From contig JBEHWX010000018.1 in assembly GCA_048498995.1 (NCBI GenBank), positions 2,620 to 66,619 on the forward strand: 64,000 nucleotides of DNA. Reading direction: 5' to 3'. This DNA is from Bacteroidota bacterium (GTDB taxonomy: Bacteria > Bacteroidota > Ignavibacteria > OLB7). Made by a program: the position numbers and the translations under genes. The notes under the pieces were generated by a model that had not been told where the DNA came from, ran no database searches, and saw nothing but the letters and a program-made list of their open reading frames with translations. Below are positions 24,423 through 31,404 of the stretch, piece after piece (position 1 is the stretch's first letter; the number at the start of each line of letters is the position of its first letter).

Positions 24423-24473
24423 CCGTTTCTCTTTGTATCGATGCCTGAAATCCGCGCTGGATCGACGAATCTA

Positions 24474-24509
24474 AACTGATCTGGTCGTGAAAGCAATCAA
24501 CTGAATCTG
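24474..24509. promoter_or_regulatory. Direct repeats AACTGA(A)TCTG, candidate MocR operator
   Basis: aactgatctg at 24474-24483 and aactgaatctg at 24499-24509 in the divergent intergenic region. Confidence 0.55.
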
Positions 24510-24548
24510 TTCCGGTCGTCTCCGATCGGATAGCTTGCGTTCGTACTC

Positions 24549-24974
24549 ATGATTGCGAGGGAAATGACGATGAACACGAAAGCAATGCGGCACGATGGGG
24601 AAGTCGCCTCGGGAAGAGCGGTGTATCCCGACCTGATCGATCTGGCATCCGGAAGTGTGCGGGCCTGGTCGCCGGACGGGAAGCAGATCGTGATCGTGGC
24701 GGTGGAGGGAGCTGTATGGATAACGCAGACCGCGGGGACGCGTGATCTGATTCTCAGACGCGGAGAAACGTTCCGATCGCGCGGCGAGGGACGGGTGGTC
24801 GTGGAGACGCTGACGCCGAGGGCACGGGTGGCGATCAGGTGGAGCGCGCCGGCGGCGACGACGGCGCGCGGATCGATGATGAGCAGAATCAGGGGGTATC
24901 TCGGCGTGCTCTTCGCCGGGCGTCGCGCGGCGACCGGACGCGTCCCGGGCGGACGCGCTCCGATGGGATGCTGA
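24549..24974 (+). CDS. DUF2917 domain protein
   Basis: EGAVWITQ...DLILRRGETF motif; divergent from MocR; start may be 24570. Confidence 0.8.
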   Translation: MIAREMTMNTKAMRHDGEVASGRAVYPDLIDLASGSVRAWSPDGKQIVIVAVEGAVWITQTAGTRDLILRRGETFRSRGEGRVVVETLTPRARVAIRWSAPAATTARGSMMSRIRGYLGVLFAGRRAATGRVPGGRAPMGC

Positions 24975-25167
24975 AGCATGGAGGGCGCATCGCGAGCGCC
25001 ATATCGCGGAGCGCCGAACGGCTCGAAGCCGGGCCGGTCTGAAGGCGACTAAGTCACACGGGACTACGAGGGGCCGCCTTCTTCCGGTACCGGCTTCGGC
25101 CGGGGCAATCATCCCGCCGTATCGCCGGCCACGCGCCGGCGATACGATCGTAGAGCGCCTCCGCGCG

Positions 25168-26580
25168 TCAGCCTGCCGACGTGGTCCGGTGCTCGCGCGC
25201 ACGCGCGCGGACCTGCTCCAGCGTGTGCTCGACCAGCAGATCTCCGTTTTCGAAGACGGTCACGAGCTCCGAGGCAAGTCCCCGCTCCCGCGCCTCGCTC
25301 TCGTGCAGCGTGATCAGCTTCCCTTCCCCATCCCGCACCAGATCGAGGCGGCCCCGCTTGGAGCGCTTGCCGTGATCGGTCACCGGATCCTTGAAGATCT
25401 CCACGCTCTTCCCCTCGATCACCGCGTGGCTCGCCTTCATCGCGAACTTCTGCGTGTCGCGATTCACCTGCTGCAACAGCCCGCCCCCCATGCCGAAGTT
25501 GATGTTCGAGATGCTGTAGCCGTTCTCCAGCAGGATCGAGAGGATGGCCGCGATCGAGCTCTCGTCGATGCCGTCTCCCTGAATCACCCGAACGTGGTTG
25601 AGCACCTTGTAGCCCTTGGTGTTGACCACGCTGCCGAAGGCCTCCTCCAGCAGCTGCACGCAGGCGAGCACGATCGAGGAGGGATCTCCCGAATCGGGGC
25701 GGACCACCAGCGTGGCGCCGGAGGCAATCACCTCGTCGCGCAGCTCCTTCCCCCAGATGTTCGAGATGGCGTTGAAGATGTCGTAGCTGTCGGAGACACA
25801 GGCGACGATCGAGCCCGGCCGCGCGAACTGCCGGAGCATGTTCCGGTAGGCATCGGCCTCGTGCTCGCGTCCCCACGCGGTGATCGTGGAATGCTCGGCG
25901 GCGGGGATCGAGAAGCCGGCCATTCCGGCGCCGTAATACTCGTTGGCGAGCATCACCCCCATCACCGTATCCGAGCCGAGGAAGTTCACCAGGTGCGAGG
26001 CGCCGCCGATCGCCGCGGTCTCGCGCGAGGAAACGCCGCGCGCGCCGAAGTCATGCAGCTTGAAGGAGATCTCCCCCTCCGGATCGTCGGCGCTCCGCTC
26101 GAGCGCGTCGAGGATCATGCCGCGGATGGTGAAGCTCCGCGTGGCCACCCCGATCGGATACCAGACGCGCATCAGCATCGTCTCCAACCAGCTGGTGAGC
26201 CACGGCAGCTCCGGATCGGTGTTCTCCACGGTGACCAGCACGTTGTGCGTATCGACCACCATCCCCTCCGGCACCGCCTTGATCCTGACCGGGATACGTC
26301 CACCATGTTCGGTCACGATCCGCATCCATCCGGCCTCGTTGAACGGCTCGCCGTGCGCCGCGAAGAACTCGCGCGCCTCGGCCACCATCTCCTCGGTGAC
26401 GACCGCGCCGGCCAGATACCGCTTCAGGATGTACTGGAGTCCGAAGAAGAGCGTGTGGGGGTAGCGGCCGCCGCGCGACTCGATGTAGGAATAGACCTGC
26501 GTGGTGCCGGCCGGATACTGCAGGTAATGCGACGCCTTGTAGGAGTCGACGTCGAGGATCAGATTTTCAATACCCTTCAT
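25168..26580 (-). CDS. nadV: Nicotinamide phosphoribosyltransferase (NAMPT)
   Basis: DSYKASH, KLHDFGARG, SIPAAEHSTIT, VSDSYD, VVRPDSGDP, IQGDG and FGMGGGLLQ..NRDT. Confidence 0.95.
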   Translation of the reverse strand: MKGIENLILDVDSYKASHYLQYPAGTTQVYSYIESRGGRYPHTLFFGLQYILKRYLAGAVVTEEMVAEAREFFAAHGEPFNEAGWMRIVTEHGGRIPVRIKAVPEGMVVDTHNVLVTVENTDPELPWLTSWLETMLMRVWYPIGVATRSFTIRGMILDALERSADDPEGEISFKLHDFGARGVSSRETAAIGGASHLVNFLGSDTVMGVMLANEYYGAGMAGFSIPAAEHSTITAWGREHEADAYRNMLRQFARPGSIVACVSDSYDIFNAISNIWGKELRDEVIASGATLVVRPDSGDPSSIVLACVQLLEEAFGSVVNTKGYKVLNHVRVIQGDGIDESSIAAILSILLENGYSISNINFGMGGGLLQQVNRDTQKFAMKASHAVIEGKSVEIFKDPVTDHGKRSKRGRLDLVRDGEGKLITLHESEARERGLASELVTVFENGDLLVEHTLEQVRARAREHRTTSAG

Positions 26581-26587
26581 GATGACA

Positions 26588-26623
26588 TCTCCTGTCGATT
26601 CGGGTCTTCCCCACTCTCCGTGG
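26588..26623 (-). promoter_or_regulatory. Hairpin CCCAC-GGAGA-GTGGG plus SD (motif copy C) upstream of nadV
   Basis: 5-bp stem and 5-nt loop, 16 nt before GGAGA. Confidence 0.5.
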
Positions 26624-26637
26624 GGGTGAATGTGGAA

Positions 26638-27672
26638 TTACGATGCGCGATGGCCTGACTGAAGAAAGTGCATGACGATGTGGAGATGGTCCTCGAACCA
26701 CTCCTCCTCGCGCGCGATCGCCTCGAAGAAGGGGAGCCAGAGCGCTCGCTCGGCATCGTCGGAGCCCTTCACGCGGGGAAGCTCTCCCTCGCCGAGATCG
26801 ATGTAGTAGGCGTGCGTGATAGTGCGCCCGCGCAGCGAGCGGTTGGGATAGTCGAAGACCTTCACCGAGGCCACCCGCTCGCGGAGCTCGGCGACCTTCA
26901 CCTGAATCTTCGTCTCCTCCCGGAGCTCGCGGAGCGCTCCCTTCAGCAGCGTCTCGTTCGGCCGGACGAACCCGCCGGGGAGGGCCAGCAGCCCCTTGCC
27001 CGGATAGGAGCGGCGGCGCACCGCCAGCACATGTCCGGAGCGGACCACCACCGAGTCGGTGGTCACGAAGGTCGGCTCGTAGGGAGCTCCTTCCCAGAGC
27101 TTCCGATAGTCGCGCAGGTAGCGATACTCCTCGACGAGCGCGGCGAAGTGCCGGCTCGATCGGAACGTCTCCATGTGCGACGCGATCGGCGGCGGGACCA
27201 GCTTGGTCCAGTCGGATCCTCCCTCGAAATAATCGCGGCGGATCTCGGTGGCGCTCACCCGCTGCAGCGATCCCGGCTGCTGATCCTGCCATTGCGGAAA
27301 CGAGCGGAGATAGCTCGTGGACTCATCCTTCGCGTTGCCGAACAGGCAGATCTCCTCCTCCGGATCCTCGACGATCTCCTTCACCTTCCCCTGGACCTCG
27401 GAGAGCCAGAGGTTGTCGTTGTTGAAGTAGTCGCGGACATGGACCACGTCGAGCCGCTCCTGATGCTCGGGACGAAGCGCCGCGCGGATCATCTCCTCCC
27501 GCTCCTCGGCGCGCCACGGGTTCTTGACGGTCCTGGCGCCACGGGCGCTGCCGATCACGATGATCACCCGGTCCGACTGCGCGAAGGCGGCGTTGACCAG
27601 GGAAAGGTGTCCGTCGTGGAACGGCTGGAAGCGGCCGATGACCACGCCATAGGCATAACGTGCATCGTTCAT
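26638..27672 (-). CDS. nadM: Bifunctional NMN adenylyltransferase / ADP-ribose pyrophosphatase (NadM-Nudix)
   Basis: IGRFQPFHDGH, SATEIR, Nudix box GGF...ALRELREET and RSLRGRTIT. Confidence 0.93.
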   Translation of the reverse strand: MNDARYAYGVVIGRFQPFHDGHLSLVNAAFAQSDRVIIVIGSARGARTVKNPWRAEEREEMIRAALRPEHQERLDVVHVRDYFNNDNLWLSEVQGKVKEIVEDPEEEICLFGNAKDESTSYLRSFPQWQDQQPGSLQRVSATEIRRDYFEGGSDWTKLVPPPIASHMETFRSSRHFAALVEEYRYLRDYRKLWEGAPYEPTFVTTDSVVVRSGHVLAVRRRSYPGKGLLALPGGFVRPNETLLKGALRELREETKIQVKVAELRERVASVKVFDYPNRSLRGRTITHAYYIDLGEGELPRVKGSDDAERALWLPFFEAIAREEEWFEDHLHIVMHFLQSGHRAS

Positions 27673-27785
27673 CGTGCCGTCTCCTGAAATGTCGCGAGGA
27701 AGAGGGAAGGAAGTGCGTGTGGGATGTGCCGCTCCGGGCACCGATGGAACGGCGAGGCCGCCGTCCGGCAGAGGTCGTACCGCAT
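27669..27785 (-). CDS. Candidate 38-aa leader uORF coupled to nadM
   Basis: GGAGAcatcATG; MRYDLC...FQETAR*; its TGA overlaps the nadM ATG. Confidence 0.35.
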   Translation of the reverse strand: MRYDLCRTAASPFHRCPERHIPHALPSLFLATFQETAR

Positions 27786-27789
27786 GATG

Positions 27790-27868
27790 TCTCCCGCTGG
27801 TTGATGGCCGTTCTCCACGGCCGTTTCAGTATCTCCAGCGATCGGGCGGAACCGACTCCCTGTCGGTT
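27790..27868 (-). promoter_or_regulatory. Tandem hairpin+GGAGA motifs (copies A and B) in the nadM leader, candidate cis-regulatory RNA
   Basis: AACCGAC-AGGGA-GTCGGTT-13nt-GGAGA, then GGCCGT-GGAGA-ACGGCC-11nt-GGAGA. Confidence 0.55.
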
Positions 27869-27894
27869 GTTCCCCGTCCGATCCGGATGTGATG

Positions 27895-27902
27895 CAAACA
27901 TA
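27895..27902 (-). promoter_or_regulatory. Bacteroidota-type -7 promoter element TATGTTTG for the NAD operon
   Basis: Exact match to TAnnTTTG. Confidence 0.55.
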
Positions 27903-28029
27903 GCCAGGCGGATCCGGACGATGCAACCGGGAAGCGTCAGAATTTCTCACGCGCCCCCGTCACGCGCCCCCTCACGCTCCGACGTCAGCCGCGAGCCGGC
28001 TCGGGCAAGCACCGCTCCCGAGAGCTCCG

Positions 28030-29559
28030 TCACAGATGCAGGGCAACGCCGATCAGCAGACCGCTCGTGGAGGGATCGATCTCGTGCGCGGCGAGCGTGA
28101 GCGATCCATTCGGAACGCCCGCCCCGGCGATATGCCTGGCGCCGATCTCCACCGGCAGCACCTGCATCGCCTGAAGCTGCACGAAGAGGGAGAGCATCCG
28201 GGTGACGCGCGAGCCCACCTCGAGCTGGACCCGCCCGGCCGGCGCGCCGACCACCTGACGGAACATCCTGGTGTCGCCGGCGAGGGAGAGCGCGGCGTGC
28301 TCGTCGACGATCGTATATCCGAGGCCGAGCCCTCCGGAGAAGTACAACCGGGCCCCACGCGCGGGATCCGGAGCGGTGATCAGATAGCTCGCCGTCACCG
28401 CGACGTCATGCCCGTTGAACCACTCCCACTTCCGACGCGCGTCCACGCTCGCCGGCGCCATCGTGTAGGTGAGCTCGAGATTCCATCGGTCGGCCGCGGC
28501 ATATCCGACCGCGATATGTCGGAGCACTCCAGCGAATCCGAGGCGTATCTCGTCATCGCCGATCCAGCCCGTGGCCGAAGGGGCACGATTGATCGGCGCC
28601 AGCAGTGGCACGCCGGAAGCGTATCCGATCGAGAATCTGGGGAGCGTGTATCGGGAGGCAACTTCCTCGACGGTCGCGGCCGGCATGTTCTCCGTCGCGC
28701 CGATGCGCTCCCACCTTCCGGCCAGGAAGCGCGCGGCCTCGGGGGGCATGCCGCTCCGGAACAGCGCGTCGTCACGCATCGTCGGCGCGACCTCGCCGAA
28801 GAGGAGCGGGTTGCCGCCGATCGCGCGGTCGAGGCCGGTCCGCTCGAGGGTGCCGATCCCGGCCGTGATGCCGAAGGCGGCTCCCGTGGCCAACCGCTCC
28901 TGGCGCGACACGTTCTCCGCTATCGGATTGTAGAACGCAAGATTCGATCCGGCCGCGCAGAGCGCGCCGACCACCAGCGCCATCACATTGTTCCCCTCGT
29001 GCTCGATCCGGTCGATCATCGCAACGGGGATCATCCGAGCCGCCGTTGCGATCGTTCGCCAGTCATAGGGGACATCCTCCGGCCAGAGAAGCACCGCGTC
29101 GTCCGTGGCCGCCAGCAGCGTGCCCTGAAGCGTGGCGCCGCTCCGCGTGGTGATGGTGTAGATCGCGAGCGAGGATGAACGGGCGCCCCCCGGTCCGACC
29201 AGGTCGCCAAGCGCGTCGAGGTGCGACGCAAGCCGTCCCGGGGATAGGCGCTCGTAACCATCGACGTAGGCGCGCAGCGCCGCGAGCCGCTTGGGAGCCA
29301 CGCTCACGCTCGTGTCGATCTCGCCTCCGGCGACCCGCCGCGTCACCATCAGGGCCGGCGGCGTGCCGACCAGTCGGACGCGCACGACCGATGGGATGCG
29401 GGGGAACAGGCCGAAGTAGGCGACCGCCGAGGAATCGAGCTCATCGGCCCGATCGCTGATGCCGGCCGCGCGTGACGCCTCCTGCGCCGAGGCCAGGCAG
29501 GTGGCCGCGCAGAGGATCGAAAGAAGTTGGAGGAATCGCGTGAGTGTCCGATGGAGCAT
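28030..29559 (-). CDS. Secreted / outer-membrane hypothetical protein (paralog of 29751-31316)
   Basis: Signal peptide, YFGLFP motif, C-terminal beta-strands ending GVALHL. Confidence 0.7.
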   Translation of the reverse strand: MLHRTLTRFLQLLSILCAATCLASAQEASRAAGISDRADELDSSAVAYFGLFPRIPSVVRVRLVGTPPALMVTRRVAGGEIDTSVSVAPKRLAALRAYVDGYERLSPGRLASHLDALGDLVGPGGARSSSLAIYTITTRSGATLQGTLLAATDDAVLLWPEDVPYDWRTIATAARMIPVAMIDRIEHEGNNVMALVVGALCAAGSNLAFYNPIAENVSRQERLATGAAFGITAGIGTLERTGLDRAIGGNPLLFGEVAPTMRDDALFRSGMPPEAARFLAGRWERIGATENMPAATVEEVASRYTLPRFSIGYASGVPLLAPINRAPSATGWIGDDEIRLGFAGVLRHIAVGYAAADRWNLELTYTMAPASVDARRKWEWFNGHDVAVTASYLITAPDPARGARLYFSGGLGLGYTIVDEHAALSLAGDTRMFRQVVGAPAGRVQLEVGSRVTRMLSLFVQLQAMQVLPVEIGARHIAGAGVPNGSLTLAAHEIDPSTSGLLIGVALHL

Positions 29560-29750
29560 GGGTCTCTCTCGTTTCGCCGTGACTGGTGTACGAGCATCCC
29601 GCGCGAAGAGGTGGCGCGCATGCAACCGCGCGGCCCGGCACCGGGATCGATGAGAGTGGCCGTCGATGAACGGCGACGAACATCGTCAACCGGCGAACGT
29701 GGGCAAGTGCAAAAAGCGGGTGCCGTGGTGGAACCGAGGGCGACCGGCGC

Positions 29751-31316
29751 CTACAGGTGCGCGCGAACGCCGATCACGAGGCTCGCCGACGAGAAGGTGA
29801 GGGTGTGCTCGGGAGATCCGGCCTGCACCGTGGGGCTGTTCGGCTCGCTCGCATCGTATACCTGCTGGAACGACCACCCCGGCAGGGTAACGCCGAACGA
29901 GTGCGTGGCGTCGACCGCGGCGAAGATCGACAGGTTGCGAATGGCCTGATATCCGATCTCCAGCATCGCATGCGCGCTGGCCGCGCCGAGCTCGTTCGAG
30001 ACGGCGCGCGTGACGCGCAGCATCCGGAGATTGTCGTTCGACTCCGTGTGCACGGCCGTCACGACGTTGACGGGGGAATAGCCGGCGCCGACGCCGACGG
30101 TGAGCACGAGATGCTGGCCGTTGAACGGGCTCGGGGCCAGTATCCGGTACAGCGTGGTGGCGCGCAGCGTGCTCAGCTCGAACCATTCGTTCGAATTTCC
30201 ACCATACTCGGAGAGGGCGGCTCCCGTGGGAATCCAGACATACTCGGCGGTCCAGCCGAGATGAGCGTTCAGATCATAGCCGAGGCCGACTCGGCGGAAG
30301 GAAACGATGGTGTTGACTCCGACATAGCCGGACCGCTTCCGAAGGTAATCGGTGACCGGCATCCGATTCTCGGAGATATACAATGGCATCCCTGAAGCGT
30401 AGTGCGCCGAGAAGTGCGTGATACGCTCCCGCCCCGCCACGGCCTCGATGGATTCCGGAGGTGGAGGAATCGTGGGAGCCGGCTGGTGCATCATGGCGGT
30501 GACCTCCGGCGGCAGATCGTCGCCGAAGAGCGCGGCACGCCGCATCTCCGGAAGAACCCGGGCATAGAGCATCGGATTTCCCCCGATGGCCTGGTCGGTC
30601 GCGCTGCGATCGTAGGCTCCGATGGAAGCGATCCCCCCCCAGGTGATGCCGGCCACCATCTCCTCGGTGGAGTTCCGCCCCACCAGTCCGTCGTAGAACA
30701 GTCCCGCCGCCGCCGTCGACGCCAGCAGCCCGGCGCTGAATCCGATGATCAGGCTTCCGCTGGACTCGATCCTGTCGATACCGGCACTACGCAGCACCGT
30801 CACCGAGGAGGAAGCTCCACGCCAGTCGTACTGCTCACGGTCGGTGGAGATCACCAGCGTCGAATCGTCCGCATGGAGCACGCTCCCCTCGTGCACGGCC
30901 CCATCCCGGCCGGTGACGCGAACGTGGCCGCCAGGTCCGGTGAACGGACGAGCCGGCCTGATCAACGCGCGGATGGAATCGACCTGGATGCGCCCCGGAT
31001 CGCGAAAGAGAGATTCGAACTCCGAGATATAGAGGCGAAGGCGCTCGGCCTGATGCGCGCTCAGCATCAGCGTCGTGTCGGCATGGGTGCCGCCGACGCG
31101 ACGTGTCACGACAAGCCGCGCTCCCCCGGGCCCCCTGTCATCGATGCGTGCCTCGGACACCCCCTCGAACGCGGGAAAGAGTCCGAAGTACCGGCACTGC
31201 GTCGAGTCCAGACGCGCTCCGATGCGCGCTCCGAACGCGGAGCCGTTGTCCGTCTGGGCCGATGCGGCGGCGGCCACGAGCAGGGCCGTCGCGATGCTGG
31301 ATATGACCGCGCGCAT
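29751..31316 (-). CDS. Secreted / outer-membrane hypothetical protein (paralog of 28030-29559)
   Basis: Signal peptide, YFGLFP, AIGGNP, ends GVRAHL. Confidence 0.72.
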   Translation of the reverse strand: MRAVISSIATALLVAAAASAQTDNGSAFGARIGARLDSTQCRYFGLFPAFEGVSEARIDDRGPGGARLVVTRRVGGTHADTTLMLSAHQAERLRLYISEFESLFRDPGRIQVDSIRALIRPARPFTGPGGHVRVTGRDGAVHEGSVLHADDSTLVISTDREQYDWRGASSSVTVLRSAGIDRIESSGSLIIGFSAGLLASTAAAGLFYDGLVGRNSTEEMVAGITWGGIASIGAYDRSATDQAIGGNPMLYARVLPEMRRAALFGDDLPPEVTAMMHQPAPTIPPPPESIEAVAGRERITHFSAHYASGMPLYISENRMPVTDYLRKRSGYVGVNTIVSFRRVGLGYDLNAHLGWTAEYVWIPTGAALSEYGGNSNEWFELSTLRATTLYRILAPSPFNGQHLVLTVGVGAGYSPVNVVTAVHTESNDNLRMLRVTRAVSNELGAASAHAMLEIGYQAIRNLSIFAAVDATHSFGVTLPGWSFQQVYDASEPNSPTVQAGSPEHTLTFSSASLVIGVRAHL

Positions 31317-31404
31317 AGTATTCACGAGCAATAATGAATGGTTGGTGTCGTCGTCTCGAATCGGCACGTTACCGTCGGCTGTCGGCGCGCGCCATTCCGC
31401 GCCC

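Follow-up and report, generated by a model that had tools for sequence, protein, structure and literature searches.

A two-hairpin mRNA leader before nadM-Nudix and nadV in phages and bacteria, and its probable copies in a Bacteroidota genome

INTRODUCTION

In the MS2 coat-protein operator and in the iron-responsive element/iron regulatory protein system (IRE/IRP), translation is controlled through an operator that a protein reads at the loop of a hairpin. The NAD+-I and NAD+-II riboswitches are small cis-regulatory RNAs that precede genes of nicotinamide adenine dinucleotide (NAD+) metabolism and exert their control at the ribosome-binding site; NAD+-I contains two hairpin domains in tandem, and a two-hairpin layout before the Shine-Dalgarno (SD) sequence occurs in tandem-domain riboswitches. 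CsrA targets classically have two sites, one GGA in the loop of a hairpin and another in the SD. Here, we compare with these systems three small hairpins, A, B, and C, which lie in the leaders of the NAD+ salvage genes nadM-Nudix (nadM below) and nadV in a soil bacterium of the Bacteroidota (GTDB lineage Bacteria; Bacteroidota; Ignavibacteria; OLB7). The window is the whole stretch of DNA that was analyzed, 64,000 nucleotides (nt) of GenBank assembly GCA_048498995.1 (contig JBEHWX010000018.1, positions 2,620 to 66,619), and positions are counted from its first letter. A sequence-only reading of the window had picked out the three hairpins by their RGRGA pentaloops, each followed by GGAGA, and had proposed a riboswitch or a protein-binding RNA.

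According to the NARP2 report (10.1101/2024.02.11.579819), nadM-Nudix and nadV are the gene pair of a phage pathway, NARP2, that rebuilds NAD+ against NAD-depleting defenses and that about 1.1% of sequenced phages carry. The report also describes overproduction of NAD+ by NARP2 and toxicity of the KVP40 operon in Escherichia coli (10.1101/2024.02.11.579819), and tight dosing of the cassette would therefore make sense. We show that many phages and some bacteria share a two-hairpin leader before nadM and nadV, which covaries and is specific to these genes. It is probable that the hairpins of the window are copies of this conserved, uncatalogued cis-acting mRNA leader, which would travel with the nadM-Nudix/nadV cassette and act as a translational operator.

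RESULTS AND DISCUSSION

Design and distribution of the leader

The leader is built from two hairpins. The upstream hairpin, H1, has a 6- to 10-bp stem of free sequence and a pentaloop that ends in GA (AUAGA, AGAGA, AGUGA, GGAGA, AGGGA, and others). The downstream hairpin, H2, is short, holds the SD in its pentaloop, and leaves a few bases between its 3' arm and the start codon. In 48 leaders, the loop of H1 starts 31 to 42 nt and that of H2 9 to 14 nt before the start codon, and across the family the linker between the two hairpins varies in sequence and length. The commonest loops, AUAGA, AGAGA, and AGUGA, are without GGA. When imperfect stems are left out, a strict H1 is present in 61 and a strict H2 in 122 of 192 unique leaders, and the two occur together in 51.

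Covariation was assessed in an ungapped alignment of 80 H1 hairpins, in which all eight stem pairs vary on both sides; pairs 6 and 7, which lie outside the selection criteria, are paired in 75 and 65 of the 80 rows, respectively. Full-leader MAFFT alignments (A2 and A4) placed H1 in several registers and so were not used for a model.

The leader is also tied to particular genes. The H1+H2 pair stands before both nadM and nadV in 80 viral contigs. At 78 loci (700,552 nt, both strands), 47 H1-like hairpins fall in the intervals 25 to 55 nt before nadM or nadV versus 102 elsewhere, and a few of the latter precede a third gene that shares the leader. A scan of three whole phage records, of 195, 101, and 79 kb, flagged H1+H2 three, three, and two times, respectively, with six of the eight flags at nadM or nadV, and SD-pentaloop hairpins beside an ATG number three, three, and four per record.

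Third genes with an H1+H2 leader, 108 to 215 amino acids (aa) long, stand beside nadM/nadV in four phage contigs (L337:1286-1740, L343:1434-1799, L370:1084-1770, and L362:1028-1709). Their products match no Pfam family, and the genes are possible extra members of the regulon.

Bacterial lineages carry their own forms of the design. At 17 cyanobacterial nadM-nadV loci, nadM is preceded by an H1 of the form GYCYGCC[NNUGA]GGCGGRC, 39 nt before the ATG, in which compensatory C-G to U-A changes are joined by U·G to U-A changes, and by an H2 of the form AUCUCAG[GGAUU]CUGAGGU. Before nadV, these loci have an SD hairpin and a long hairpin of the form GGCCYGG[GGAGA/GGUGA/GCUGA]CCGGGCC, whose outer stem covaries. 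Chromatiaceae and phage-like contigs, which range from 32 to 68% GC, have G[AUAGA]C hairpins with unrelated stems 37 to 40 nt before nadM and a GGAUU or GGAGU hairpin at the start codon. A Jannaschia locus has three hairpins with GAGGU loops, two before nadM and one before nadV. The contig with the highest NadM identity to the window among the fetched metagenome contigs (L042, 45%) has ATCCC[AGAGA]GGGAT before nadM and TTCCC[AGGGA]GGGAA before nadV.

One of the 17 cyanobacterial loci (L276) has a spacer of only 25 nt, which no longer contains the nadV hairpin and retains just half of the SD hairpin; the element is thus dispensable at this locus.

In Gammaproteobacteria, we compared 17 nadV loci. 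Four have an adjacent nadM, three of them with an AUAGA H1 and one with a GGAUU hairpin only; a clear H1 is found at none of the other 13, one of which has a weak 5-bp AAUGA hairpin. This association of H1 with nadM would fit a cassette-borne reader and, equally, common descent, and it does not identify the reader.

Absence from orthologous leaders had been named beforehand as a finding that would speak against the motif; related hairpins are present in cyanobacteria, Chromatiaceae, Jannaschia, and many phage contigs. The conserved unit differs from the one that had been proposed, an RGRGA loop with a downstream GGAGA: the family keeps a hairpin with an xxxGA pentaloop and a second, SD-holding hairpin that had been overlooked. 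Four orthologous loci gave no relevant Rfam match, the two-hairpin leader has no Rfam entry, and we found no description of it in the open-access literature.

Probable copies of the leader in the window

The leader of nadV is a canonical copy of the family, in which hairpin C is H1 and GACA[GGAGA]UGUC is H2 (Table 1). The stem of C starts 12 nt past the nadM stop codon and its loop 39 nt before the nadV ATG; after the hairpin come 16 nt, GGAGA (26592-26588), tgtcatc, and the ATG (26580-26578). The loop of H2 starts 12 nt before the ATG. Both hairpins thus stand at family positions within the 57-nt spacer that separates nadM from nadV on the minus strand.

The leader of nadM is a rearranged variant, with two H1-like hairpins, A and B, no H2, and a start codon that belongs to an upstream open reading frame (ORF). 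A and B cap two abutting imperfect hairpins of greater length, at 27883-27840 and 27839-27796, respectively. B is followed by 11 nt, GGAGA (27794-27790), catc, and an ATG (27785-27783). The loop of B starts 31 nt before this ATG, at the edge of the family range, and that of A 76 nt before it, outside the range, so that the family positions are matched only loosely by A and B, which precede the upstream ORF. This ATG, which the sequence-only reading had placed after B, is not the start of nadM; it opens a 38-codon upstream ORF, which begins MRYDLCRTAASPFHRCPERH and is in a different frame from nadM, and the ATG of nadM is at 27672. The latter start is backed by the length of homologues (344 aa here versus 346 aa), and nadM has its own SD, AGGAGA, at 27685-27680.

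All three hairpins and the GGAGA after each were confirmed at the spacings originally described. The 5-bp version of C starts at 26624 rather than 26623 on the minus strand, and its stem is in fact 6 bp; the structure itself stands. As had been noticed, no sequence is common to the arms of the three hairpins; what is kept is the asymmetric 5-nt center alone.

Table 1. Coordinates of the hairpins, start regions, and genes of the nadM-Nudix/nadV locus
Feature	Positions	Strand	Description	Basis
Hairpin A	27850..27868	-	AACCGAC[AGGGA]GTCGGTT; 7-bp stem, C-G closing pair; H1-like	Read; minimum free energy (MFE) and centroid fold
GGAGA after A	27832..27836	-	13 nt past hairpin A; no start codon within SD range	Read
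Hairpin B	27806..27822	-	GGCCGT[GGAGA]ACGGCC; 6-bp stem, U-A closing pair	Read, folded
GGAGA and upstream ORF	27669..27794	-	GGAGA at 27794-27790; 38 codons, ATG 27785, TGA 27671-27669; stop overlaps the nadM ATG as ATGA	Read
nadM-Nudix	26638..27672	-	Bifunctional nicotinamide mononucleotide (NMN) adenylyltransferase and ADP-ribose pyrophosphatase, 344 aa	Pfam CTP_transf_like 5.6e-12, NUDIX 7.1e-18
Hairpin C	26609..26625	-	CCCCAC[GGAGA]GTGGGG; 6-bp stem, C-G closing pair; H1 of the nadV leader	Read, folded
H2 of the nadV leader	26584..26596	-	GACA[GGAGA]UGUC; 4 bp, SD in the pentaloop	Read; MFE and centroid fold
nadV	25168..26580	-	Nicotinamide phosphoribosyltransferase, 470 aa	Pfam NAPRTase 6.2e-63, NAMPT_N 6.9e-36

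The window and the family have in common a leader before both cistrons, a GA-ending pentaloop in H1, an SD in a second pentaloop, and specificity for these genes within the genome. They differ in that the loops of the window, GGAGA and AGGGA, are the same word as the SD, whereas AUAGA, AGAGA, and AGUGA are commoner in the family; in that the nadV H2 has only 4 bp; in the nadM copy, with its pair of H1-like hairpins, missing H2, and upstream ORF; and in that the cassette is high in GC and chromosomal, not phage borne.

We searched the window with an H1 covariance model (R1) that was built from 77 sequences, none of them from this genome, at E values up to 10. C ranked second (17.1 bits), A fourth (16.5 bits), and B 28th of 37 (9.9 bits). 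Natural variation was seen in strain contigs from three DNA runs (soil and rhizosphere metagenomes), in which a 150-nt piece of the leader differs at 27865 and 27867. On the minus strand, these are C27865>U and A27867>G, both in the 5' arm of A, and both pairs become G·U; no change was seen in the covered parts of B and C. In a metatranscriptome library, one contig matches 27698-27864 fully; such contigs show no transcript ends, and DNA carry-over is possible.

The hairpins are not a product of chance. We made 20000 dinucleotide-preserving shuffles of the 228-nt leader and the 57-nt spacer. At least three pentaloop hairpins of at least 5 bp appeared in 98 shuffles, one hairpin with an RGRGA loop in 78, and two or more such hairpins in 0. 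Genome-wide, 145 RGRGA-loop hairpins were counted among 28840 pentaloop hairpins of at least 5 bp (2 × 6.09 Mb, both strands), and most of the 145 lie within coding DNA. Crudely called intergenic DNA (572 kb) contains 14, A and B among them; C was left out of this count by a spurious opposite-strand ORF that masked its site. No paralogous leader was found in the rest of the genome, where the best other BLAST match is 19 nt long. Thus, the three hairpins are non-random, and the shuffles, the genome-wide counts, and the family comparison bear out the claim of an RNA motif common to both NAD salvage genes.

Several observations weigh against assigning the hairpins of the window to the family. H1 and H2 were gathered with loop patterns of our own definition, which partly presuppose the GA of the loop and the pairing of the inner five pairs. 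In the genome, a loose H1+H2+start pattern has 17 hits versus 4 in a reversed-sequence control and is unspecific in GC-rich DNA. In the R1 search, an unrelated site in a coding region outscores both C and A, at 19 bits, and the model, though in favor of A and C, is too small to decide alone; B is at background level and has the sole U-A closing pair among the 80 H1 rows. A and B precede the upstream ORF rather than nadM, and on reading the sequence we found no H2 stem around the GGAGA of either the upstream ORF or nadM. Folding energies are no lower than in shuffles, with z-scores of -0.93 (241-nt leader) and +0.31 (91-nt spacer region). The two strain variants occur together as a single haplotype common to the strain contigs, and half of all stem transitions keep pairing by chance, which makes them weak support. 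Finally, what links these hairpins to the family is their design, position, and type of loop rather than descent traced in an alignment.

A repeat with a related hairpin was noted on another contig, C14 (20243-20540), where three copies of a unit of ∼60 nt, 114 to 164 nt apart, contain GAACCC[RGGGA]GGGTTC followed by TCATCA. The repeat adjoins a tRNA gene on the opposite strand and, read there, resembles fragments of the tRNA T-arm and 3' end; the copies look like leftovers of successive integrations at the tRNA gene.

The upstream ORF

The peptide of the upstream ORF matches no Pfam family. An 18-nt tract of C and U only, CUUCCUUCCCUCUUCCUC (27696-27713, minus strand), lies inside this ORF, 11 nt before the nadM SD. 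It contains UCCCU, the exact complement of the loop of A (AGGGA), and UCUUC, which could pair with GGAGA through G·U; the tract may be an anti-SD or a partner for loop pairing.

Small tblastn searches with the N termini of NadM proteins against the upstream ORF and the A-B region gave short matches, RYDL..PFH..H...HAL and, in another frame, VGSAR....K.PW, and the first residues of the upstream ORF and the PFH..H...HAL stretch resemble NadM N termini. The idea that this region is a relic of an older nadM 5' end is not supported: 116 of 2000 shuffles equalled or beat the DNA alignment, and a six-frame search of the genome with a NadM profile (hmmsearch) gave 278 domain hits but no leader fragment.

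A translational operator and its possible readers

Control of translation, which the sequence-only reading had put forward, is the most plausible role of the leader. H2 is predicted to constrain the SD, since confinement to a stem-closed loop of five bases should make it less free to pair with 16S rRNA. H1, with its free stem, kept loop, and fixed distance, looks like a recognition element and would act as the specificity element, bound by a putative trans-acting reader. Since phages with many different hosts and bacteria of several phyla have the element, whatever reads it should be either universal or cassette borne; the candidates are the ribosome (30S subunit), a metabolite, NadM-Nudix, and NadV. 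In the window, initiation at nadV would be set directly by the leader, and initiation at nadM indirectly, probably through the upstream ORF and translational coupling.

The analogy that we favor, a functional one only, is with the MS2 operator and IRE/IRP. These, too, combine a stem of free sequence with a kept loop near the ribosome-binding site, but they have one hairpin and a known reader protein, whereas the nadM/nadV leader has two hairpins and a putative reader. A dedicated RNA element common to nadM and nadV would be a new cis-regulatory RNA family that extends from AT-rich phages to high-GC bacteria, and it would offer a handle on the dosing of a costly NAD+ pathway. To this, the window adds a chromosomal form from a high-GC bacterium, in which the loops are the SD word and one copy would act through an upstream ORF. 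Natural variants of the leader could help to find the reader.

A more specific proposal, about which we are doubtful, is that the two-hairpin operator is read by the cassette's own NadM-Nudix or NadV and that NAD+, NMN, or ADP-ribose displaces the enzyme from the RNA. If true, any host or phage that receives the cassette would acquire with it a self-contained feedback circuit of enzyme and RNA, similar to aconitase/IRP, and this bacterium would have rewired the circuit through the upstream ORF.

The hairpins could instead punctuate the operon, acting in mRNA stability or processing, as 5' protection, as a 3' stop to exonucleases, or as sites of RNase cleavage, with no specific reader. Hairpin C begins soon after nadM, at the 12-nt distance given above; in cyanobacteria, its counterpart is long, stable, and intercistronic, and locus L276 keeps the operon after loss of the hairpin. 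Protective hairpins, however, need no kept loop, no fixed distance of 31 to 42 nt, and no SD-presenting partner, and in phage genomes of 80 to 195 kb H1+H2 stands before nadM and nadV but before almost no other gene. We therefore regard punctuation as unlikely.

In a metabolite-sensing riboswitch, an aptamer for NAD+, NMN, ADP-ribose, nicotinamide, or phosphoribosyl pyrophosphate would open or close the SD. A universal metabolite would suit as the reader of an element that enters many hosts and is tied to two genes of a single pathway, and A and B form two abutting imperfect hairpins of ∼45 nt right before an SD and an ATG. Against this, cmscan with 4227 Rfam families (E up to 10, positions 26300-28300) found nothing on the sense strand and four chance matches on the other. 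The NAD+-I model (nadA, RF03013) found nothing at the locus, and its best score in the genome, on another contig, was 22.1 bits versus a gathering threshold of 37.5. NAD+-II (the pnuC motif) has no sense-strand match at the locus. Moreover, the loops of the window equal the SD rather than complement it, which agrees with the earlier remark that the motif is distinct from a loop-SD pseudoknot. The family keeps only its pentaloops and pairing, with no conserved junction or bulge for a pocket, and the variable linker argues against one; the loops differ by lineage (AUAGA, AGAGA, NNUGA, GGAGA, and GAGGU). Unlike NAD+-I and NAD+-II, the leader of the window has no conserved internal bulge or pseudoknot, and the regulated genes differ. 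A metabolite-sensing riboswitch, which had been suggested, is thus decidedly unlikely.

CsrA/RsmA-type sites, also raised by the sequence-only reading, would place one GGA in a hairpin loop and another in the SD. The window has this layout, since every loop contains GGA (B and C) or, in A, GGGA, and a GGA-containing SD follows 11 to 16 nt downstream, within the 10 to 20 nt of CsrA targets. No csrA gene was found in the 96.65%-complete genome, however: PF02599 gave 0 matches, and controls from E. coli, Bacillus subtilis, and Thermotoga maritima were positive. Most family loops (AUAGA, AGAGA, and AGUGA) are without GGA, and the motif is private to one operon, with no regulon. We consider control by CsrA very improbable.

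A DNA-level explanation, in which the inverted repeats are operators bound by a dimeric repressor such as NrtR, deserves just as little credence. In its favor, A and B are promoter proximal, and a study of NrtR names the nadM-nadV operons of Synechocystis as targets (PMC2330246). NrtR operators control the same genes as those behind the two-hairpin leader. The NrtR sites described there, on nadM-nadV and prs-nadV operons, are 21-bp palindromes with a GT-N7-AC core (PMC2330246), but the arms of A, B, and C are fully different and lack this core, with only the asymmetric 5-nt center kept. T opposite G is tolerated on the sense strand only, both in cyanobacteria and in the strain variants, which is pairing by the rules of RNA, and hairpin C lies between two cistrons. 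Coincidence, that is, ordinary GC-rich hairpins with purine loops in a purine-rich leader, is barely credible: the folding z-scores are unremarkable, the motif was defined after inspection of the data, and small hairpin models score equally well or better in coding DNA, but the shuffles and genome-wide counts oppose it, and the design recurs at the same distance from the same two genes in unrelated genomes.

The cassette and its surroundings

NadM-Nudix was found in 1 of 401 sampled genomes of the phylum, namely, this one, and in none of 60 relatives. The nearest NadM proteins, P0002 and P0003, are 77% and 76% identical, respectively, and the next are at most 52% identical; the scanned metagenome and genome contigs contain no NadM above 49% identity. 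The NadM homologues carry the same enzyme name in their source records. For NadV, a phage record encodes a homologue of 62% identity. One relative in the same family (G004) has a NadV of 60% identity with a leader unlike that of the window, and a search of its genome with the NadM of the window found no NadM.

The genome, of 6.09 Mb and 65.5% GC, makes modest use of SD sequences. Among eight ORFs neighboring the cassette, there are no PHROG matches, and GC content shows no deviation; neither scan points to a prophage. The nadM/nadV cassette is an old, ameliorated acquisition that is now chromosomal.

The sequence-only reading proposed TATGTTTG as a promoter element, but support for it as a promoter of the Bacteroidota type is lacking: TANNTTTG has only 454 occurrences in the genome and is weakly enriched before genes. 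A scan of the locus found no sigma-70 promoter and did not accept a weak, sigma-70-like TTGCAT-18-TATGTT pair that is visible by eye.

Three large ORFs flank the cassette on the minus strand, at 28030-29625 (531 aa), 29751-31367 (538 aa), and 24471-25202 (243 aa). None has a match in Pfam, NCBIfam, or PHROG, and the 243-aa ORF, which overlaps the 3' end of nadV, is perhaps spurious. Between the stop codon of the 531-aa ORF and the nadM leader, a direct repeat, GGGGGCGCGTGA, occurs twice, 1 nt apart (27945-27985, minus strand).

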